NCBI GenBank assembly: GCA_002269645.1
Contig: NIVC01000493.1
Coordinates: 496,001 to 560,000 of the forward strand
Length of the DNA: 64,000 bases
Direction of reading: 5' to 3'
DNA from: Macrostomum lignano
Lineage: Eukaryota
Of the stretch, positions 1 to 11,829 are shown piece by piece; the stretch's first letter is position 1, and every line of letters starts with the position of its first letter. The position numbers and the translations under genes are program-made. The notes below the pieces were generated by a model. The model made no database searches. It saw only the letters and a list, made by a program, of their open reading frames with translations, and was not told where the DNA came from.

Positions 1-3000
1 CCACGTACCGGTAGAGCTTGGGGCCTCCCGTGGTGAACTGTACCATGCGGCAGCCAGCAGGTACCTCGTCAGTCCACTGCCCCAAACTCGAACCGCCCGG
101 AGGCTCGTACTCGCCCGGAGAGCAGCGGTATACGACCCTGGGAGGAGGAGAAGGATAAAGTGTTAAGGGGAGAAAGAGAGACAGAGACAGTTGAAAAAAT
201 TACTCACGAATCAGTATCGGCGTAAATGACGCGGGTTCCTAGACCCTCCAGAGCCTCGTAGAGTCGCAGCCGGGCGTGGGAGGTGGTGAAAACGCCAATA
301 GGTACATTAGCGTACTTGAACGCCCGCTCGCCAGCACCGCCAAATCGGGGCTTGTACTCGAGCATCATGAAGCTCTCCCCAATTGGCTCGCACGACTTGA
401 CCTTGATCGAGGGGTCGGTCAGGCGCTGCAGCCACGCCTCGTAGCTGTCCACAATCTCTGTGGAGGTCAGGTCGTCGCGCTGGCAGAATTTGCCCCAGAG
501 CCTGCAGGGAAAAATAAATTTTTTTTTGTAAGTAGAAAAACACGGCCCCCACTGCAAGTAGAAAAACTTACGAGTTTAGAAAAATCTTGGCCACAAAGCG
601 CAAGCCAGGATTCTCCTCCACCTTTTCCAGCCGGACGCCTTCGCGCTCGAAAAAGCTGGCCATGTAGGCAGCCTTGGCGTCCTCAGCCATCCCCGGCGAA
701 CCGCTAGACTCGGCTTTGAGCTTTAAAAAAGTGTTTACGTAATCTGCAAACAGGCCCGTGCGAGTCTCGGTCCAATAGGCCAGGGCATGAACTGACTGCA
801 GCTTGTAACCCAACTGCAGGGCTTTGTGGAGCTCTGGGGTCGACCACGTGCCGCGGAGCATTCTCTCAGCGTCAGTGTGTGTACACTCGCTGCTGCACTG
901 GGTCTCCATGCAGACGCGGCAGAGGCCGAAAACCAGCTTCTTGTTAATCTTGGCGGGCAGTAGCGGGATGTGGAGATTGGTTGGCGGCAGAATCGACACC
1001 TCGGCGATGCCAAAATACCGGGCCAGCTGCAGCTCATCCAGTAGATGAGGCTCGGGGTGGTGAACCGGGTGCCCGACCGGGTACTTGTCAAACTTGTTGA
1101 CAGTCGGGTAGAGCGACACCTAGGGGATAAGGATAAGATAAACTCAAACGCATGTCAACTGTGTGTGTGTACAAGTGTACAAACTTACCACATCCCGATA
1201 GCGCAGCTCTACAGTCTCGGTGGCCTCGGCGTGCGGGACAAAAGCCTCGGTACGGCCGCCAAACAGGGCATCCTCCAGGCGAATAGGCTGCTGGACTGGC
1301 GCTCCCTCGTCCTGATAGTCGTGCTCCCACAGAACACGCACATTGTATGCAGTGGAGAGCAGCCGGGTGAAGCGCTCAGTCTCCTCATAAATTGCTCGCA
1401 TTGGCTGGTTCTTGAGCGGGTGCAGCACGTCGCCGTTGGGGAAGCACTTGGGACAGCCATGGAAGAAGCAGCCATGAAACTGCAGCACTGTCCTGGTCTC
1501 TGGGTCGAAGCCGTCGACCTTACGGCCCATGGCGAAAGCCTCGCCGCCCGAGTCCGCTGTCCGCAACCGGCCGCCAAACTCGGTTGCATTTAAATGTGCC
1601 AGCCAGCACCGCGCCTTGTGCGACTGTACATCGGACCGGCGGGAAATCACCCCAAGAGTGTTGGGCTCCATAAACTTGGTGGTGAATACCGACATGGCCA
1701 AGCCCGCAATGGTGTTGGATTGAACAAATGCGTCCAGTCCGCAAATGTCCTTAATCAGGCGGGTGTACTTTAGACAGCCTTCCCGCAAAATTAACGTGTC
1801 CTGCAGGCAGTAGTCCAGGTACTCCTTATTGAAATTAAACACCTGTCCCTCCTGCTTGGCCAGCCAGTCGGCGATGGAGTCATGCTGCTTATTCTTCTTC
1901 CCGCCGTACATATCAATTGAGCAGTAGGGACCGACGTACCCCCAATTTTGAGGCTGGTTAAACACGTGCGGGAAATCTCCTTTGGTCAGTTGGGTGCCCA
2001 AACCAAGCGCCTTTGGGAATTGCGCCAGACCAATAGGGATGAAATTGAGGCTGTCCTTGAAGGTGATCTTGTCGCACTTCATGTACATTAGGCGGCTGTT
2101 CTGGAAGATCACCTGCGGCTTCTTCTTGGCCAGTCCGTTGAGTAGGGCGCCGAGCAGGAGGAATGCGTCATACGCAGAGCCATTGTGCGCAATAGCAATT
2201 GCCCCCTGCTTGAACACACTAGTCAGCCAGCAGTAAAATGCATCGATAGAGTGCGGCCCGACAGATACAAACTCTCGCATCCCACAGGCACAGTCATTGT
2301 GCGAGACACAGCTCGTGAAATCCAGCGCCAGATTGCGTCCCGCAATGCAATTGGCTGAGCTGTGTAGTCCCCCGCACGCGCTGCAGCGGGGCCTGGGGAA
2401 GAGTTTGGGACACGCCTCGCAGGAGGTGGCAGCCGTAACCAAGTGTACCCGGTGCTGCTTGCCAGAGTCCACGTACGTCTCGAAATCATAGTAAACATAC
2501 GGGGCGCTAGACTCTTTGGCTTTGGGCGGGGTGACAAAGCACTCGTGGGTGGCAGTTTCGTCGTACTGCTTGCAGACTGGGCACTTGGCGTAACCACACT
2601 GATGCTCAGGGGGCTGGCCTACTTTTAGTTCTTCTAGATAGCCACACGTGCCGCAAACGTGGACCGAATCACAGCGCGATCTGCCGGCCTTATTCTTGCG
2701 CTTGTGATTTTCTAGGCACTGAGCATTATAGCAATTTAGCCCGCAATCATGGCATCTTACATATGCGCGGTTTGCCTTACAGTTGGAGCCCGGAGTCTTG
2801 CATGTACTGCAGGCATCAGCGCACTTGTGCTTGGCGGGTTCGCTATCATAGGCCATCTCGCACTTGGGGCAGTAGTGGTGGCTGCCGAAAAACGCAGGCA
2901 GCTTGGTGACCACATTAAAGTGCTGCTCGACCAGGTGTAGGTGCAGAATCTCGGTGCCCGGCAGGTTGAAGATGCACCTGTTGGCCTCCTCTGCGCGGTA

Positions 3001-3908
3001 CACGCGTACACCAAAATCGTGCCCTGGATGCAGCCGGTTCAGGGCACGGATCGCTTCGGGCAGTGCATCCACCCCGAAAGGACCGGCCTGCGAGACGGTT
3101 TGAAGAGTCTGTGTGGGGGGTAAAATATTTCTTTTAGTATTCCCTGATACTGTGTAAAAAATCTTTTAGTATTCCATGATACTGTGTAAAAATCTTATCA
3201 GAAAATATATCTTTTAGTACTCCATGATACTGTGTAAAAATTCTTTTAGTATTCCTTATCGTAAAAATTCTTATCAGAAAATTTTAGTATTCCATGATAC
3301 TGTGTAAAAAATTCTTATCGGAAAAATACTAGAAACTTACCGTGTAGAGGCCAGCTTCGATTTGTAGCTCAGCCACCAGCTTAGTCTGCGTGGGCGAATT
3401 GGCCTTGATTGTGTGCCACACCCGCTTGGTGATGGACTTGGCCACGAATTGCAGGTAGGCGCAGGCCACGACCAGAGCGCGCAGCAGGCATCTCTTGTCC
3501 GAGTTGGTGATGCGGACATAGTGCTTGGAGAAGGCGTGCCGCTCTTCTAGATGCTTGTTCTCGAGAGCACATCCACCTCGAGGCACCCAGGCCTTTAGCA
3601 ACCGGATAGAAAAGTTGCCTGACAATACAGTGGCATCCGACTGCACAATCTTGTCAATGTGCTTAAACAACAATTCAGCCGTCATGCGGGATGCACGCAC
3701 CGGGGGAGTGTGGGCCGCTTTGAGCATATTGTCGCTCTCGAATTTCGCGGCCATAAAGTCATCACCAGCCAAATCTTGCTTGAAAACTTCGAGCATGTCA
3801 GCAAACACCTCCCGCAAATCTTCGGTGTTGGTAATATGCACCACATACTCGACACCCTTTGCCCTAAACTTGGGCAGGTCACGCTGATTATCCAGCCGGC
3901 CGTAAAAC
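1..3908 (-). CDS. polB: Protein-primed family B DNA polymerase (pPolB, Polinton/adintovirus type), multi-exon, 3' end beyond left edge
   Basis: Exons (minus) 3908-3341, 3108-1189, 1119-572, 501-208, 137-<1 join in frame through GT-AG introns 3340-3109, 1188-1120, 571-502, 207-138 (phases 0,0,2,2), giving about 1155 visible codons. The spliced protein has ExoI YYDFET, ExoII AHNGSAYD, ExoIII YCLQD, motif A YRDV|VSLYP, motif B KIFLNS|LWGKF, FTTSHARLRLY, motif C YADTDS|VVY, then LGQWTDE...FTTGGPKLY. Confidence 0.95.
3125..3330. repeat. About 33-nt degenerate tandem repeat inside pPolB intron
   Basis: Repeated TTCTTTTAGTATTCCATGATACTGTGTAAAAA / TTCTTATCAGAAAA blocks. Confidence 0.85.
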
Positions 3909-3978
3909 CTGCATGGGGGGAATGGGGGAGTGTGAGTCAGCTAGGGTCTGTGTGGGAAATGGGGGCTGGATAACTCAC

Positions 3979-4845
3979 CCGGTCCGGTAACAGATTCCGG
4001 CTGTGTTGGCGGGACAAACGCGTCTGAAAAAACACAAGGAGATAAAAAACCAGAAGAATCTGTCATTTTCCTGGCCCCAGCGTGTTTCCCCGCCCTAGCC
4101 CCAGCAATTTCTTAACAGAGTTTACTCTGCTGTCCCCGCAGCAACTCTCTGCAATTTCTTATCTGCACCCCCGCTGCAGCCTGTCGCAGCAGTCTTTGTT
4201 TACTCACCCCTGCAACTCTCTGTCGCAGCAATTTGCACCTAGCTGCAGCCTGTCTGGGTAGCGCCCCTGCCAATTTCTTATCAGTCTGTCCCCGCGCTAC
4301 ACAGTCCCAGCAACTCTCTGCCCCCACCTGGCTGTAACTTGTCTAGCCTGCCCCAACGATTCTGCAGCAATTTCTTATCTGCCGCAGCACCCTAGCAACT
4401 GTCTGTTTTTGCAGCAATTTCTTATCAGCACACCCCTCCCTGTCTAGACAACACCCCACCCCAGTCTTTGTTTACTCACCCCTGCAACTCTCTGTCGCAG
4501 CAATTTGCACCCCAGCTGCAGCCTGTCTGGACAACACCCCCCTAGCAGCAATTTCTTATCAGCACACACCCGGCTGAAACTTGTCTAGCCCTCCCCTGCA
4601 ACTCTCTGTTACAGACCCTGCCGCAGCACCCCACCCTAGCAACTCCAGTCTAGACCCCTGCAGCTGTCGCAGCAGTCTTTGTTGTTTACTCTGCGGTCCC
4701 ACAGACCCTGCAGCTGCTGCTGCTGCTCAGCCCCTACCCCCACCCTAGCAACTACAGTCTAGACAGAAATTAATTAAAACTTACCATAAAGACGTTGCCT
4801 CTTGTCAGCCAGGAAAGCAGTTGCTGCGGCGCTGCGTTTAGCCAT
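3979..4845 (-). CDS. Candidate 5' exons of pPolB (4845-4785 and 4023-3979)
   Basis: AAAATGG start at 4845, donor G|GTAAGT at 4784, acceptor TTTTCAG at 4024, donor G|GTGAGT at 3978, 70-nt intron to acceptor at 3909. Encodes MAKRSAAATAFLADKRQRLYDAFVPPTQPESVTGP but is 1 nt out of phase with the pPolB frame (see findings). Confidence 0.55.
4100..4770. repeat. Mosaic of short direct repeats in the putative first pPolB intron
   Basis: About 65-nt duplication (GTCTTTGTTTACTCACCCCTGCAACTCTCTGTCGCAGCAATTTGCACC..., near 4193 and 4463) plus recurring GCAATTTCTTATC and CTAGCAACT motifs. Confidence 0.8.
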
Positions 4846-4915
4846 TTTGCAAACAGAGAGCGTGAGAGAGCGGAGAGAGAAGGATTTATCTCTCTACCCT
4901 GGCTCTGGGGGTCTG

Positions 4916-5037
4916 TATATATACTAAAAAATCTGCTCAGCTCGCCTGTTATTGGATAAATCGCCAAAAACCAACCAAAATCATCAAAAATCACCCCAAA
5001 ATCATCACCCACCCCACCCTCCACCGGGGGTATATAA
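4916..5037. promoter_or_regulatory. Divergent promoter: TATATATA (4916-4923) for polB and TATATAA (5031-5037) for the PC4-like gene
   Basis: TATA motifs lie about 70 nt upstream of ATG 4845 (-) and about 50 nt upstream of ATG 5084 (+). Confidence 0.55.
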
Positions 5038-5083
5038 GGCGCTGCACGGCTGTCAGAGAGCTCTCTGCTGCTGCTGCTAAATC

Positions 5084-5617
5084 ATGTCTTCTATCTCTCT
5101 ATACGAAAACTTTGTGGCGCGGAAGCCCACATTTGAAACTGAACACAACTTGATTGAAATTCGGCGTCTCTACACCAACGAGGCCGGAGTGTGGAAGGAC
5201 GGCTTCCCTGCAATCTACTTGGCCGAGCCAGAGTGGAAGAAGCTCGAAGCTGCGCGCCCTGACCTGGAGGCTGCTGCCCGCCTTCACGTGAACAAGCGGG
5301 TCCTGTTGGGCAATTTCAAGGCAGTTGAAGCTTCGCGAGGGAGGATCCGTTTGCTGCGCAATTGGCTCAATCAGGACCCAAAGTTTAATTGGCGCTACAC
5401 GATCGAATTCACGCCTGAACTGTGGCGCCGGATGTTTGCCGCCCGTTTGGACAAGCTCTTCAAGCCGGCACCTGAGGCACCCCCTCCAGCCAAGCGAGTC
5501 AAGACAGACACGCCTCCGGTAGCCGGGACTGAGGTGGATGTTCTTCAGCTCATGGGTCTCAAACCCTACCAATCTCCACCCTGGGAAAATCTGTTTAACG
5601 AGGGTTGGGACTGCTAG
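5084..5617 (+). CDS. PC4/Sub1-like putative ssDNA-binding protein with a probable second degenerate PC4 repeat (177 aa)
   Basis: LIEIRRLYTNEAGVWKDGFPAIYLAEPEWKKLEAARPDLEAAAR aligns by eye, without gaps, to human PC4 [44 protein letters not shown]. A second segment, IRLLRNWLNQD...YTIEFTPELWRRM, repeats the pattern. Intronless, with upstream TATA. Confidence 0.7.
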   Translation: MSSISLYENFVARKPTFETEHNLIEIRRLYTNEAGVWKDGFPAIYLAEPEWKKLEAARPDLEAAARLHVNKRVLLGNFKAVEASRGRIRLLRNWLNQDPKFNWRYTIEFTPELWRRMFAARLDKLFKPAPEAPPPAKRVKTDTPPVAGTEVDVLQLMGLKPYQSPPWENLFNEGWDC

Positions 5618-5653
5618 TTTCCTATTGGTTCGCACCGCCTCACTCGATCCGTC

Positions 5654-5660
5654 TATATAA
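5654..5660 (+). promoter_or_regulatory. TATA box of the orphan gene
   Basis: TATATAA about 75 nt upstream of ATG 5733; ATTGG (inverted CCAAT) at about 5624. Confidence 0.45.
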
Positions 5661-5732
5661 TTAGTGTTTCCCCCTCTCCAGAGAGTCAAACCCTATCTCA
5701 GCTCTAATACTTTACTCTCTGTTGATTCTAGC

Positions 5733-6747
5733 ATGTCCCGCCGAGCTCTATCCAACCTCTGGGATAATAATCGCCCGACTGAAGAGTTAACCAGCCTCGA
5801 CGGGGATATCCCTGAACACATAGTTCCCCTAGGCACTGAAAACAACGGAAGTGATAATTGGGAGGCTGATCAATATCTAGCTTGGGCTATGTCCTATGAT
5901 AGCGACACCGAGTCTGAAGTTTTTGACCTCCCGCTGCTGGCTATCGGCGGGGTTGTGAACGGTGCCCCTGCTGCTACTGCCTCCGATTTGACTACCGCCT
6001 CAGCCGCCCTCTTTGACGTCTCTGTTGAGGAGCTGACCACAACCGGCCCTGCCTCTGCTGCGCCCGTCTCTGCTGCTGCCGCCTCTACTACGCCCGTCTC
6101 TGCTGCTGCTTCAACTACCTCCCACCGGGCCTCAATATCATCAGCCGCTACGCTCCTTCTCTTCGACGACGAGGACGAGGATATGTCTGAGGAGATCGCC
6201 GTGGTTCGTGAGCGCTTTCCTCGCATTGTGGCCTCATTTTTCCGCGGGGACATTGACTGGCTGAGGTCTCGGCATCCTGGCGGGCTGCCCTCCCAAGCTA
6301 CCTTTGTCAGAGCCTTTAATCGGGTTCTTGATACTTTGGTTGCGAGGGGTGCCGGCCTACGGGAGGTGTTGGAGGCTGAGACTCTGCACCAGGACTGGTT
6401 GATGGGGCGCAATTCGTATGCCCCCGACTCTGAGGCGTACCTGGCCGGTCCGGGAGCGCGGCCAACTGCGTGGGATGAGCCCGTCGCATGGCCCTCCAAC
6501 TGGGAGGAGCACCTTTCGTTGGTGCGCTATACAGCGTCTCTACGTCTGTGGCGGCTGGAGGACGATTTAGATTTGGTAAGATATTACATTATATACACAA
6601 CTCATCTAATCATATACCTTGCATATATTCTATCTACATTGACTGTTATAATTTCCACATTGCCAGTCATCCGACTACTGCTTCGAGAGCGTGGAGGAAG
6701 AGGCCGCGTACGAGACAGCCCTGAGGGAGCGTATGGAGATTGACTGA
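5733..6747 (+). CDS. Orphan protein of the pPolB element, 2 exons (5733-6575, 6667-6747), about 307 aa
   Basis: GC-rich coding sequence is interrupted by an AT-rich 91-nt phase-0 intron (TTG|GTAAGA...TTGCCAG|TCA). Spliced C-terminus reads LEDDLDL-SSDYCFESVEEEAAYETALRERMEID*. Acidic N-terminus, Ala/Ser/Thr linker, no recognised family. Confidence 0.65.
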
Positions 6748-7580
6748 TAAGGGTATTTCTCTTTGTACGCGGTTTGGGGAACCCAACACTGTACACTGGG
6801 TAGGTTAGAATGTGCGCTAGCTGGGGGCCTCTATGTGTGTATACACGGGGGTTAAAAGACCAATTCTGATAGCTCGCTCCTAGGGAGGAAATTGGCAGAG
6901 GGGCCGGCCCAAAAAACTGAAATGGGCTGGCCCCGGGCTCGAGTCCACCCACCTAAAATATGGAGGTCATTACAACCTAATGACCCGAAATACTTTCAAC
7001 GCAATTGTACCTATAAGAGGGTTAGGGCGGCGGCGGCGGTGGCGAAAACGGGCGGCTAAAACCTCCCTTTTGGGATTTCCCCGAACCGCTTTTGTTTAAA
7101 ATTTTTATGCACCTGCGGGTTAGACAATATTTACTCTTTAGTCGGTGTGACATTATTTACGCGTCTGTTGCACCTGGGCGTTTGCCTATAATCTGATTAT
7201 ACATGCGTGCCTGTATTATACAACTACACCTTATGCATGCCTTGTAAACCTGCTTTATACATTAACCCGATATGTATCGAAAGTACACTTTGTAAACCTG
7301 CTGTGTGTATTTCCACCTATGTAGCGCCTACAGTACCTGCTTTGTCTATTTCTGCCCATACACCTACATTGTGTGTTTTTGCTGCTCATATGCTCCAATA
7401 TGTACATTTTAATATGCAATATGCGTCATTATTCACCTACCAATATGTTTTATCTACATTTTTATGTAAATATACGCAATTTCATCTACTATAAGTAGTT
7501 TTCACTAGCCTAATATCGTTGACTACATATCGGAAGAGTGGTAGAGTGTACATATCGGGAGAGTGGTAGAGTGTACCTTT

Positions 7581-7756
7581 GGCTCGGTAGAGTGTACACT
7601 CGGGGTGCCTGCGGCTCGGTAGAGTGTACACTCGGGGTGCCTGCGGCTCGGTAGAGTGTACACTCGGGGTGCCTGCGGCATGGGCGCCTGCGGCTCGGGA
7701 GGGTGCGCTTGGGATCTGATTGATTTGGGATCTGATTGATTTGGGATCTGATTGAT
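7581..7756. repeat. Iteron-like repeats: 3 x 32 nt (7581-7676) and 3 x 16 nt (7709-7756)
   Basis: GGCTCGGTAGAGTGTACACTCGGGGTGCCTGC x3, each containing the palindrome GAGTGTACACTC; TTGGGATCTGATTGAT x3. Confidence 0.9.
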
Positions 7757-9446
7757 TTATTGGGATCTAATATCGGTAGGTGCGCCTGCGGCTGGGGAGG
7801 GTCGCCTGCGGCGCTTGGCGCCTGCGGCGCGCGCGCGCGCCGAGCGCCGATATCGATACGGGTATCGATCACCTAGTGATCGGGGCGCCAGCCAATGAGA
7901 GGCGAGGAGGGTTGACACCCACCTCACCTCCAAAATCGCGCCATTCGGGTTCATATAGTAGTCTCGGCCCCATCTTTTGTGGATGATGAAAAGACTGAAG
8001 ACCTGCAGTCCAGCCTAAAGTTGTCTGAAAGTGGGGAACCCCCAGGCCTCAAGCCGTCACTTCTTGACTTAGGCTTTTCATGGCTCTAGTTAGCTGCTGC
8101 TTTGAAACCGGCGTAGCAGTTGGGGGGGGGGTAATTACCCTGCCGCGGCACTCGAGTCCCCCCGGCTCCTCCATCTCCCTTCCTCCCTCCCTGGGCTCAG
8201 CTGGCGGGGAACAGGCAAGCGGGGATTTCTAAGAAATGGGAAGTAGAAAAAATATAGATGGGGAAAACTCGGGCCTTCGTCTCTTCCCCCTCCACCCCCC
8301 CCCCCTAACTCTAAGTCGCCCTATCTCTCTGTTCTGTTCTCGGGCAGTCAGGCGGAAAATTGAGTTGAATTCTGCTCACATATCCCAAGCCGAACCAGGT
8401 GTGCTGTGAGGGGGGTGGTGCGCCGTCCATGATTAACGGGTCTCAACGCGAGCCCTCGCTCCGAGATTTAAGCAGGAATGCCGCCGCCTGCCTGCTTGCA
8501 TAAACAGGTTTTCTGTCCCCCCCTATAATCAAGACTCGCAATTGATAACTTCCCCCGGTTTTGTTCTGCTAGCTGACTGTCTCTCCGCGACTCTCCCATT
8601 ATAGATCGGCGGCTGACCGGAACGGGATGGGCCAAAACTTTCTTCTATATGCATAATTATCACCCCGAGCCGCGGGCGGGCACAAAGGCCTGAGATTTTG
8701 CCTTTTGTTGAGAGTTTTCTTTTGGAAAAAGAGAGATATTTTCTGTATGCTCAGAAAAAGAGCAATGGGACACCTGCTTTTAGAAATATTTTAAGCTGCC
8801 TCACAAATCTATTTGAATTTTTGAGACATTGCAACTTCTTTATAAAGACACAAAACTTCACCATAAACAATAAATAAATTTTTATTGTTTATTAATCAAA
8901 TTTTATGATTTTTCAGCAAACGCAACCTCATAGACTCCAGTGTGTTTTTGATAAAGAGCTGTTATTCGAAATCGACTCAGTCCCTGCTCAAAGTCCCCCT
9001 TCTCAGCGAAGCAGCCTTCACTAATCAGAGCCAACGCCCTTATCGAATACTAGATGTTGAGCAAATGCGCAAATCTACCAGCATCTCAGAGCTTCTTCAT
9101 TATAGGCTTGCTCATCTCGCGTTCCCTCCAACCGAGCAGTGAAAATAGTCGATGGCCCTCCCCAGTGATTCGTTCCAGCATCCTCCCTGTTCTGCAGCAG
9201 CTTCATCCGCAGCTTCCCCCCCCGCCCCGCCGCCTCTGCCGCCGCCTCTGCCGTAGCTGCTCAAACCCCCATGCAATCAGCCAATCAGACAGGCCCTCCC
9301 GAATCCCTATTGATCTCCGATTCCTCAAGTATTGTAGAATTGCCCGTCTGCTTCCGTTTCGATTCTCAAATTTCTTCATCCCCAGATTGCAGCTTGTGTA
9401 ACCGGCTGTGATATACGAAAGCAGAATTTTACACGGTTTGCAGAGC

Positions 9447-11083
9447 ATGAAGTCTACTAAAGAGGTGGCAGCTTCGGCAACCGCAATGCCCAGGCGGCAT
9501 GGACTGGTATGTGCATCCCAATCCCAATGTTTCCCATGACTTATCTCAGAAATCCCAATGTTTCCCATGACCCATCTCAGAAATCTCAATGTTTCCCATG
9601 ACTTATCTCAGAAATCCCTATGTTTCCCATGACCCATCTCAGAAATCCCAACATTTCCCATGACCCAACTCTGAAGCCCCATTCTCACTCCATATTCAAA
9701 CAGGATGTCGGATCGGCTGAAGAGCCGTCAATGCGACGCCACCTCGACGACGCCGCCGAATGCCGAGGCGACGGGTCTCCCCAAGAGACCGCAAATATCT
9801 CGCAAGGCACCCGCGTCGGCAGTGTCGGCGTGCCGACCAGGCCGGAGGCGCCGTCCTCGTCTGAGAATTCGCCGACGGCGGGAGGAGGAGCCTCTGCTGA
9901 CGTCGGCAAGCTGCCACCGGCCACGGCAGCAGCGGCGGCGGCAGCGATGGCTGCTGCTGCGGCTTATTATCGAGGCGGCGCCAACAGCGGCGGCGGCGCC
10001 GGTGACGGCGGCAGCGGCGGCGGCAGCGGCGGCGGAGGAGGCGGCGACTTCTATCACACGGCGGCGCTGATGGAGCCGATGTCGACGCCGATGTTCAAGG
10101 CTGACTATCCGCCGGCAGCGCTGTACCAGGGCTGGCAGCAGCACCAGCCGCAGCAGCAGCAGCAGCAGCACCTTCAACATCAGCAGCAGCAACAGCAGCA
10201 GCATTCTTACTGGGAACTGCAGCACGGACCCAACTGGCTCTCTACTGCAGTGGCAGCCTCCGGTGCCGAGCATCATCAGCACCAGCCGCACCAGGTGCAG
10301 CAGGCGCAGCACTTCGCCTATCTGAGCCAGCCGGCCGCTGACTACCCGCTGGTCAGCCAGCAGACGCATTCCTTCCTGCCGTTGTTCAGCCACGCCGACG
10401 CGGCGGCGACCGCCACGGCGGCGGCTGCGGCAGCTGCGGCTGCGGCGGCGGCTGGCTATGCTGGCACTTCAACGTCGTCCGTCGGTGGACAGCAGCCGCC
10501 GCAGCCGCCGATGCCGCTGCAACAGCAGCCGCCAGCAGCGTCGTCCAACTCCGGCAGCAGAGACGCCGGCAACGGCAGCCGGAGCAGCGGCGGCAAGTCG
10601 AACCGGCGCTACCCCGGCCGGGCCACCTGCGACTGTCCGAACTGTCGCGAGGCCGACCGTCTGGGCCCGGCGGCGGCGGCGCAGCTGCGCAAGCGGAACC
10701 TTCACAGCTGCCACATCCCCGGCTGCGGCAAGGTGTACAACAAGACCTCGCACCTGAAGGCCCACCTTCGCTGGCACACCGGGGAGAGGCCGTTCGTGTG
10801 CAACTGGCTGTTCTGCGGCAAGCGGTTCACCCGGTCCGACGAGCTGCAGCGGCACCTGCGGACGCACACAGGTGAGAAGCGGTTTTCCTGTGCGGTGTGC
10901 CGCAAGAGATTCATGCGCTCCGATCACCTTTCAAAGCACCTGAAGACGCACAGCGAGGCCGGGGAGCAACACCCTGATGTTGAGGAGGACGAGGACGGGA
11001 ACAGCATCCCCATGGGCGGCGGCAGCGTCGGCGGCGGCGGCGAGGAAGACGCGAAGTCGGCGATTCGCCTGCAGCAGCCCTGA
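9447..11083 (+). CDS. Sp6-9: Sp6-9 (Sp8/9-like) buttonhead-box C2H2 zinc-finger transcription factor
   Basis: Btd box [15 protein letters not shown], then three fingers [12 protein letters not shown]..., [21 protein letters not shown]..., ..[11 protein letters not shown], matching the Sp8/9 signature. Probable exon 1 9447-9506 (CTG|GTATGT) spliced in phase 0 to acceptor AAACAG|GAT at 9704; exon 1 is less certain than exon 2. Confidence 0.95.
9527..9665. repeat. 31-nt tandem repeat in Sp6-9 intron
   Basis: AATGTTTCCCATGAC(T/C)(T/C)ATCTCAGAAATCCC, about 4.5 copies. Confidence 0.85.
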
Positions 11084-11470
11084 GCGCTTGGTTCGATAAG
11101 TTTTAAGACGGACGAACTTTCACTGCAATCCCCTCCCTTACTATCCCATTTCCCCTTCGTGTGCAACAGCTGTGCATCGCCCACCAGTTAGTTATTGAAT
11201 ATCATATTGAAAGTCCACTATTGTCGAGAAATATTAAATGTTGTTTTTGTAAATGACGAATGGCACGGCCAGTTTAATAGCAGTCTAAAAATGTTGACGG
11301 TTCCTTTCTATCATAGCAAATTAACTGGATGATGCTTCGCGAGTGAGTCTGATTTTTAGAGTCGGAGTTTTTTGAATGAAGTTATCAATAAACTTTTTTG
11401 GTCGGCAATTGATGTTTCATTGAATTTATCGGCATTTTTTTCTCTTGATTCACACAGGGCGTGAGGGTAG

Positions 11471-11829
11471 GCAGACGCAGGACCAGTCAGCGGTTGAGTT
11501 GGGGAGGGGGTGGGCAGACGCAGGACCAATCAACGGTTGAGTTGGGGAGGGGGTGGGCAGACGCAGGACCAATCAGTAGTTGAGTTGGGGAGAGGGTGGG
11601 CAGACGCAGGACCAATCAGCGGTTGAGTTGGGGAGGGGTGGGCAGACGCAGGACCAATCAGCGGTTGAGTTGGGGAGGGGTGGGCAGACGCAGGACCAAT
11701 CAGCGGTTGAGTTGGGGAGGGGGTGGGCAGACGCAGGACCAATCAGCGGTTGAGTTGGGGAGGGGGTGGGCAGACGCAGGACCAATCAGTGGTTGAGTTG
11801 GGGAGGGGTAGGCAGACGCAGGACCAATC
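11471..11829. repeat. 42-43-nt minisatellite (8 full + 1 partial)
   Basis: GCAGACGCAGGACCAATCAGCGGTTGAGTTGGGGAGGGG(G)TGG; unit starts at 11471, 11514, 11557, 11600, 11642, 11684, 11727, 11770, 11812. Confidence 0.95.

Follow-up and report, generated by a model that had tools for sequence, protein, structure and literature searches.

Three closely packed genes (a pPolB gene, a PC4-like gene and a spliced orphan) occupy the left edge of the window, by which we mean the whole stretch of 64,000 nucleotides of Macrostomum lignano DNA analysed here. Are they the end of an unusual full-length Polinton, or a capsid-less minimal replicon? Both possibilities were raised in a sequence-only reading of this DNA. 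The former does not hold: the element's left end, with its target duplication, is reached 1,516 bp outside the window. The latter is supported, and the three genes co-occur at many loci; but the element is neither free-standing nor without known ancestry. Its pPolB, PC4 gene and terminal repeats, and the 6-bp duplications of its target, mark it as a Polinton derivative that needs an outside integrase. We favour, at somewhat better than even confidence, a replicon of Polinton descent: it copies both itself and a class of palindromes, and a Polinton-type integrase acting in trans inserts it. The integrase most probably comes from a resident full-length Polinton, and we infer that self-replication is extrachromosomal.

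Table. Features of the element, in window coordinates unless a contig is named
Feature	Position	Strand	Remarks
Whole element	C493:494485-503962 (window part 1..7962)		9,478 bp
pPolB exon 7	1..137	-	Runs ~256 bp further, left of the window, to the stop
pPolB exon 6	208..501	-	Following intron at the end of motif C (YADTD)
pPolB exon 5	572..1119	-	Preceding intron splits Pol motif A (between D and VSLYP); following one splits motif B
pPolB exon 4	1189..3108	-	Cys-rich region; exonuclease motifs YDFET, AHNG..YD, YCLQD; HGCFFHGCPKC; GGRTE
pPolB exon 3	3341..3908	-	Frameshift near 3898 in the window copy
pPolB exon 2	3979..4023	-	45 nt
pPolB exon 1	4785..4845	-	ATG at 4845; joint 4023-4785 in 2 of 4 runs
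Divergent promoter region	4916..5037		TATA-like boxes 4916-4923 (pPolB) and 5031-5037; predicted from sequence
ORF2	5084..5617	+	177 aa; PC4/Sub1 fold in residues 1-130
ORF3, spliced orphan	5733..6747	+	Exons 5733-6575 and 6667-6747
Right terminal inverted repeat	7060..7962		903 bp; 100% identical to left copy
Hypervariable 20-nt block	7936..7955		nt 8-27 from the end
Terminal TAGTAGT-3'	7956..7962	+	5'-ACTACTA on the other strand
Target-site duplication CTCGGC	7963..7968	+	6 bp; second copy left of the left end

The 1,516 bp outside the window consist of the left terminal inverted repeat and the 3' part of pPolB. This flank had been proposed as a check; it contains the matching 903-bp repeat, without a single difference from the right one, and the 6-bp duplication, and no standard Polinton gene set. 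The right end, formerly placed at 7890, is at 7962. The "repeat/palindrome-rich arm" reported there is present but is the right terminal inverted repeat. The flanking DNA is that of the host, with an Sp-type zinc-finger gene downstream, as had been recognised. An exact 6-bp duplication accompanies all 45 loci of the window's family (family 1) that have both ends, and likewise the resident full Polintons.

According to the available text of PMC8097293, Polinton ends are 5'-AG...CT-3', with (AG)3 or (AGT)2 in vertebrates. The tips of the element, 5'-ACTACTA...TAGTAGT-3', are the reverse complement of the usual Polinton end and do not start with 5'-AG. The family-1 terminal repeat contains GCCGCAGG seven times against 0.05 expected. 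The tip block differs between elements by 9.8 of 20 nt on average, yet at 34 of 45 loci the left and right blocks of the element are identical. A hairpin telomere at the tip was considered and rejected, the fold of 7770-7962 being weak (z -1.95; 8 of 200 shuffles were equally good).

The three genes lie in the orientations first described, each with a TATA-like box; the third box, upstream of ORF3, is at 5654-5660. pPolB (seven exons, six introns, minus strand) matches PF03175, and its exonuclease motifs and Pol motifs A, B and C are recognisable. Exon 3 likely encodes the terminal-protein region, and its DKRCLLRA is the putative Cys motif of a vOTU-like domain; these domain names are drawn partly from known motifs and partly from the accessible portion of PMC11161782. 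The exon 4 motif HGCFFHGCPKC resembles that of VSR; Pfam gives no VSR match for it, and one relative is named VSR by its source. The polymerase is a probable candidate for the VSR-bearing pPolB2 type. Our pPolB tree is a quick version built without the pPolB2 references of Jeong et al.; short coverage removed 4 of its 46 rows, and the resident outgroups are on long branches. Exon 4 had no match among PDB sequences, the window protein gave no exact-peptide match in a scan of viral contigs, and pPolB shows no sequence-level relationship to the polymerases of four resident full Polintons.

Splicing of pPolB and the orphan, as first proposed, is supported by GT-AG ends at the six pPolB introns and the ORF3 intron and by splice joints in contigs of four public runs, which we guess to be RNA, none being recorded as such. 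The polymerase had also been called intact; the window copy as assembled has a frameshift in exon 3, and the reading frame is open in 5 of 23 copies and frameshifted, as assembled, in the other 18. One could propose ordinary decay on this ground, the elements being passively amplified Polinton deletion derivatives and the palindromes described below artefacts of long-read assembly; no short-read contig crosses a palindrome centre, which would agree. We give this reading very little credence. Within exon 4, 21 of 29 deleted bases fall in base runs, which comprise 44% of all bases, so many frameshifts may be sequencing errors. Among copies pN/pS is 0.13 for pPolB exon 4, 0.07 for exon 5, 0.32 for ORF2 and 0.08 for ORF3. 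By this measure purifying selection is acting on all three genes, and the low values suggest that the copies spread while these proteins mattered. The same plan, moreover, recurs in a second family.

The PC4-like assignment of ORF2 is borne out by an alignment (E=5e-9) with the PC4 protein of a resident Polinton and by a model with pLDDT 91, which best matches human PC4 and the adintovirus "MOSUB" protein. Human PC4 is on top in the PDB comparison (prob 1.00, rmsd 1.7 over 66 columns, E=2e-3), and MOSUB gives TM 0.71 and E=4e-4; the single-sequence model was unusable (pLDDT 35). A Pfam profile search finds no PC4 match for the window ORF2; the family-2 homolog passes the Pfam PC4 cut-off. The product is predicted to bind single-stranded DNA. 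As for ORF3, the region round its splice site is conserved in family 2. Pfam offers no credible family for it, residues 150-280 have no match in the Atlas, and homologs among the best 7,995 candidates scored occur only under the host species name. Its identification as an "Oncoid" was rejected, as there is no exact LxCxE motif.

The absence of integrase, ATPase, protease and capsid genes, already remarked on, agrees with ORF, Pfam and resident-Polinton probe searches, none of which detected such a gene in the element; there is no RNA polymerase ORF in it either. Three genes, introns and repeats account for the element fully. The resident-Polinton integrase, capsid, ATPase and protease probes gave no match at E<=1e-3 in the window element and 40 family-1 loci. 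No Polinton integrase or capsid match was found inside the element at 24 family-2 loci, and 13 further family-2 loci gave weak integrase matches only, in LTR-like DNA outside an element.

The assembly contains about 220-240 integrated ACTAC-type ends. Three end patterns listed 232 of them, forming 83 end pairs (58 classified, 25 unclassified), and 52 of the 58 classified pairs are 8-10 kb long. Window-like copies number dozens and are young; nine sister copies have 0-7 substitutions relative to the window over 1.85 kb. The search for other copies, suggested earlier, defined the ends and found pPolB, the PC4-fold gene and the orphan together at many loci. Family 2 has ~65% pPolB identity to family 1, the same gene layout, its own palindromes and likewise 5'-ACTAC ends; GCCGCAGG is absent from the first 600 bp of these ends.

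Half of the sampled elements are non-coding palindromes of 8-9.4 kb. They share with the polymerase element only the outer ~300 bp of the terminal repeat, most of the arm being unmatched. Four 27-mers are present in both types, which, together with the matched tip blocks, is expected if both replicate and recombine together. Assembly artefacts would hardly have, as each palindrome does, their own flanks and 6-bp duplication, or a common ~75-nt asymmetric centre (13 of 22 palindromes); the arm sequence is also present in short-read DNA contigs. A special structure at the centre was not retained, since the stretch with the strong fold (z -6.55) takes in 20 bp of the arms, which makes the value uninformative. 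An Rfam search of two palindromes gave no match.

We presume the following mechanism. An element that has kept only its replication genes (spliced pPolB, PC4-fold protein and orphan), flanked by terminal inverted repeats, would be copied through protein-primed strand displacement in the form of free linear DNA, and so would the gene-less palindromes. Priming at each end would fall to the N-terminal part of pPolB, and the PC4 protein would coat the displaced strand, which may fold back on its terminal repeats and so keep both ends of one molecule alike. The displaced strand of a palindrome would form a 4.6-kb hairpin with a complete origin, and the palindrome could thereby parasitise the polymerase efficiently. 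Packaging in a capsid that is likewise borrowed may explain why ~9 kb is the common length. The integrase that performs the insertion is likely of Polinton type and encoded by another element.

Which element supplies it? Resident integrase-bearing Polintons with readable ends all start with 5'-AGTAG, so for the ACTAC-ended families a resident integrase must accept a 3' GT instead of CT. Further points against the preferred reading are the unrelated polymerases of the four resident full Polintons, the identity of ORF2 to their PC4 proteins (only 26-31%) and the lack of GCCGCAGG in the first 600 bp of family 2. The C114-type resident lineage encodes a PC4 homolog, and its tips have a short fixed end, then a variable block, then fixed GCCGCAGG. 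One of its members is inserted within a palindrome (C106); elsewhere (C1944), by coordinates, an ACTACTA element interrupts a C114-type integrase gene. The PC4 homolog, the tip plan, GCCGCAGG and these mutual insertions point to this lineage as the helper. The C494/C110/C592 family, with an integrase and an internally deleted polymerase, was rejected as a partner, its ends being AGTAG.

A segmented Polinton is possible, if distinctly less probable: the element would be the polymerase segment, a dedicated ACTAC-ended partner would carry integrase and capsid, and the palindromes would be satellite or defective segments. Non-canonical ends conserved in two families ~35% apart in pPolB suggest a matching integrase, the uniform ~9-kb length fits segment packaging, and segments with shared termini are known from bidnaviruses and Vesanto virus, as the accessible texts of PMC8502044 and PMC8363768 report. 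However, only two of the 83 end pairs are 10-11 kb long, both with pPolB matches, and the 40 family-1 and 24 family-2 loci have no integrase or capsid match inside. The genome candidates scored were the best 144 of 2,313 for integrase, 150 of 619 for ATPase and 126 of 195 for capsid, so that a dedicated partner, if rare, may have escaped detection. Matches to rve came overwhelmingly from LTR retrotransposons, and the Pox_A32 profile had no match in the genome, although ATPases exist there.

The helper could also be absent from the assembly, a free or rarely integrated ACTAC-ended virus with a related pPolB that supplies integrase and capsid on infection; we consider this unlikely. Metagenome relatives of pPolB (on L267, L289, L327 and L225) do adjoin integrase, ATPase and capsid genes, and the assembly gave no full element with this polymerase type among the best 56 of 313 candidates. 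No such virus was found, however, and even the best metagenome matches reach no more than 27-40% identity.

Under the preferred reading, a Polinton-derived replicon served by an integrase in trans, a Polinton lineage has survived the loss of integrase and virion genes yet stayed nuclear and mobile, and would parallel, within the nucleus, the step from which cytoplasmic linear plasmids arose. A laboratory animal with young, transcribed copies makes open Polinton questions testable: free protein-primed replication of Polinton DNA, the end stringency of the integrase, and packaging of other DNA. Perfect palindromes of 9 kb are not normally stable in chromosomes, and the terminal block, particular to each copy, offers a natural tag by which the lineage of replication events can be followed. 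It is tempting to go further and propose a multipartite, integrating, nuclear dsDNA virus-like system of an animal, with polymerase, palindrome and integrase/capsid molecules of ~9 kb and ACTAC ends, represented by two families in the one genome; we hold this tentatively, as a minority view. If true, its molecules would be co-replicated, swap terminal blocks and be packaged to one size.

We did not find this type of element in the main texts of the literature searched; Kapitonov and Jurka (2006) and Repbase may list non-autonomous Polintons. With Polintons/Mavericks (adintoviruses) the element shares pPolB, long terminal inverted repeats, the 6-bp duplication, a trinucleotide-repeat tip and a PC4/"MOSUB"-like gene. 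Polintons are 13-25 kb long with intronless genes, according to the available parts of PMC8097293, PMC8502044 and 10.1101/2023.08.22.554363. The element, in contrast, is 9.5 kb long, lacks integrase, capsids, ATPase and protease, and has seven introns (six in pPolB), 5'-AC ends and giant palindromic satellites.

As in the Polinton-derived linear plasmids pGKL and kalilo, described in the accessible portion of PMC11161782, the virion module is lost and the terminal-protein pPolB and terminal repeats are kept. With its TATA boxes and spliceosomal introns the element is nuclear, unlike these plasmids; it also lacks an RNA polymerase gene, and its integration is precise and frequent. Vierula and Bertrand (1992) reportedly described a hairpin-forming deletion derivative of kalilo.

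Bidnaviruses and the Drosophila Vesanto virus likewise have pPolB on one molecule and termini common to several; in the available text of PMC8502044 and PMC8363768 they are free ssDNA viruses that carry structural genes of their own and whose vOTU is inactivated. Here, by contrast, the second molecule type is non-coding, every molecule is integrated, and both the Cys and the His motif of the vOTU look intact.

An enzyme supplied in trans is needed by non-autonomous DNA transposons and fold-back elements too, and the palindromes, like them, keep only the ends. In contrast to that group, the main element here keeps a selected polymerase, which makes the dependence three-tiered (helper integrase, polymerase element, palindrome), and the palindromes are ~9 kb long, with arms largely unrelated to the parent.

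The window element is real and recently active. Retrieval of 20 kb of left flank and alignment to nine other copies, as the sequence-only reading had proposed, defined both ends: the element extends from C493:494485 to window position 7962 (9,478 bp), starts with 5'-ACTACTA and finishes with TAGTAGT-3', has terminal inverted repeats of 903 bp that are 100% identical to each other, and is bordered on either side by the 6-bp duplication CTCGGC. That reading had offered two possibilities, the end of a Polinton or a capsid-less minimal replicon; the former is dismissed by the completeness of the element, and the gene content (pPolB, PC4-fold ORF2 and ORF3 only) agrees with the latter. No match anywhere in the element was obtained with probes for integrase (three), capsid (two), ATPase (two), minor capsid and protease taken from resident Polintons, in line with the sequence-only reading, which saw no integrase, ATPase, protease or capsid ORF on the window side. 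Host Sp-type DNA does lie beyond it: the element sits about 1.6 kb upstream of an Sp-type zinc-finger ORF, whose expression the insertion might have altered. The host gene is flanked by 31-bp and 43-bp tandem arrays (window 9520-9675 and 11465-11829).

Exons of the pPolB gene (window coordinates)
Feature	Position	Strand
Exon 1	4845-4785	minus
Exon 2	4023-3979	minus
Exon 3	3908-3341	minus
Exon 4	3108-1189	minus
Exon 5	1119-572	minus
Exon 6	501-208	minus
Exon 7	137 to about 256 bp left of window	minus

The seven exons encode about 1,275 codons. Splice joints were sought in contigs of four presumed-RNA runs from four studies, whose reads are not assignable to the window copy. Joints 136-207 and 500-571 of pPolB and 6574-6666 of the ORF3 intron were found in all four runs, 1117-1187 and 3108-3341 in three, and 4023-4785 (exons 1-2) in two; the exon 2-3 boundary appeared as a true joint in one run and as loose ends in all four. 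The predicted splicing of pPolB is thereby supported. Each of the polymerase motifs A, B and C is hit by one of the last three introns. Introns 3 (3122-3316) and 1 (4100-4760) are packed with short imperfect repeats varying in number from copy to copy. The protein also has Cys and His motifs, which we take to be of the vOTU type. The description of pPolB as intact has to be corrected: the assembled window copy is frameshifted near 3898, and the frame is fully open in 5 of 23 copies. Since 21 of the 29 bases deleted in exon 4 fall within base runs, which hold 44% of all bases, many of these breaks may be long-read errors.

ORF2 encodes a PC4-fold protein, as had been supposed. ORF3 homologs, among the best 7,995 candidates, occur solely under the name of M. 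lignano. Comparison of copies shows purifying selection on all three genes (pN/pS of 0.13 in exon 4, 0.07 in exon 5 and 0.32 in ORF2, 22 copies each; 0.08 in ORF3, 13 copies).

pPolB and the PC4-like gene do co-occur elsewhere. Window 4900-6600 has a full-length match at at least 22 loci among the best 40 of 90 candidates, and nine sister copies show 0-7 substitutions relative to the window over 1.85 kb. In a subfamily about 8.8 kb long, pPolB and ORF2 are retained and ORF3 is reduced to a remnant. The end pattern ACTACTA-N20-TTTTGGAGG matches the genome 222 times versus 0 for the control; with three looser sub-patterns the listing comes to 240 ends. Contigs C1242, C1300:338559, C1923, C168, C4048, C1597, C3395 and C670 carry short elements (0.46-4.1 kb) that end in ACTACTA, several of them near-identical in size. 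At C271:276939-317558 (L086-L090) a 32-kb Polinton with AGTAG ends has inserted into a polymerase element and is flanked by a separate 6-bp duplication.

The 45 family-1 loci with both ends read all have an exact 6-bp duplication; pPolB is present in 21, a second type accounts for 22, and the remaining 2 fit neither group. Elements of the second type match the polymerase element over the outermost ~300 bp and in a few short internal patches, and they form giant palindromes: self-complementarity (95% identity or more) covers at least 85% of the length in 18 of the 22. The arms reach about 4.5 kb, and 13 of the 22 have a centre of ~75 nt. In one arm, no ATG-initiated frame exceeds 122 codons, and two palindromes searched gave no Rfam match. 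Arm sequence is found in short-read DNA contigs, none of which spans the centre.

Tip bases 8-27 differ between elements by a mean of 9.8 of 20, with 31 distinct 27-mers among 45 elements. The two tips of one element are identical in 34 of the 45, a figure that rises to 41 when a difference of one base is allowed, and four 27-mers are common to polymerase elements and palindromes. We infer that fold-back copying makes the ends of an element alike and that ends are exchanged between co-replicating molecules.

A second family has a pPolB about 65% identical to that of the first, ends 5'-ACTACGTA (111 matches versus 0 for the control) and 6-bp duplications. In the most complete copy (10.4 kb, on C1263), pPolB and a PC4 gene are divergently oriented, the PC4 protein being 44% identical to ORF2 and scoring over the Pfam cut-off for PC4; this copy also has a dUTPase and a spliced homolog of ORF3, and integrase and capsid were not found in it. 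Of the 17 non-polymerase loci of this family, 8 reach 85% self-complementarity or more, and the majority of the rest show it in part; the family's palindromes have no sequence relation to those of family 1. The dUTPase gene also occurs on C157, C471, C694 and C1438 and in L182 (G000:C2132:148104-157572), which has it in both 2.2-kb arms together with an inserted THAP/P-element transposase. At C1485:44228-62496 (L049-L051) a family-2 polymerase element lies within a family-2 palindrome, with separate 6-bp duplications. On C583 and C3173 (L058-L060, L064-L066) the flanking 6-mers and end variants of two family-2 elements are reciprocally swapped, as if by recombination between two insertions or by mis-assembly.

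Several families of full Polintons, equipped with capsid and integrase, are present in the genome, and every one with readable ends has the AGTAG start and a 6-bp duplication. As the C114-type Polintons have the PC4 gene, tip architecture and GCCGCAGG motif in common with window-type elements, and the two are nested in each other in both directions, we prefer this lineage as the putative source of integrase; the differing terminal bases (AGTAG versus ACTAC) argue against it. C114-type tips (L083 10183 region, L092, L145, L157) have a variable block of ~17 nt between AGTAGTA and the fixed motif, and the two tips of the C393 copy differ. Another AGTAG-ended family (C494, C592, C110; L159-L164) has integrase, capsid, TBP-like and PC4 genes and an internally deleted polymerase; its C592 copy, 10.6 kb long and nearly palindromic, carries integrase in both arms. 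A less probable alternative is that the window element is the polymerase segment of a split genome, with integrase and capsid on a same-ended partner. Pairing 232 ends (after removal of 8 chance-like rows, and with many single ends outside pairs) gave 83 pairs, with pPolB matches in 35, sampled palindromes in 23 and 25 unclassified; both pairs of 10-11 kb have pPolB. The partner protein searches scored the best 144 of 2,313 integrase, 150 of 619 ATPase and 126 of 195 capsid candidates.

Synthesis would be primed by protein at each end, and the displaced strand would be coated by the PC4 protein and fold back; insertion would then use an integrase borrowed from another element. PMC11161782 describes Polinton pPolBs as having a terminal protein at the N terminus and a vOTU protease that presumably frees it. 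A length of 8-10 kb is found in 52 of the 58 classified elements, although the palindromes are non-coding, so a length constraint, e.g., packaging, may apply. The literature searched (mostly open-access, as listings, abstracts and some passages) yielded no account of palindromic satellites accompanying a polymerase-only Polinton and no report of Polintons in M. lignano.

The phylogeny called for by the sequence-only reading, a quick tree, unites the polymerases of both families in one clade (SH-aLRT 100) that sits on a long stem within a set of animal and metagenomic relatives; the polymerases of four resident full Polintons fall elsewhere. The best matches outside the host are 28-40% identical, and several of these relatives lie inside elements that also carry genes for integrase, ATPase and capsid; therefore, the minimal form is a derived state. 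The window element is Polinton-derived, yet outside Polintons by the membership criteria.
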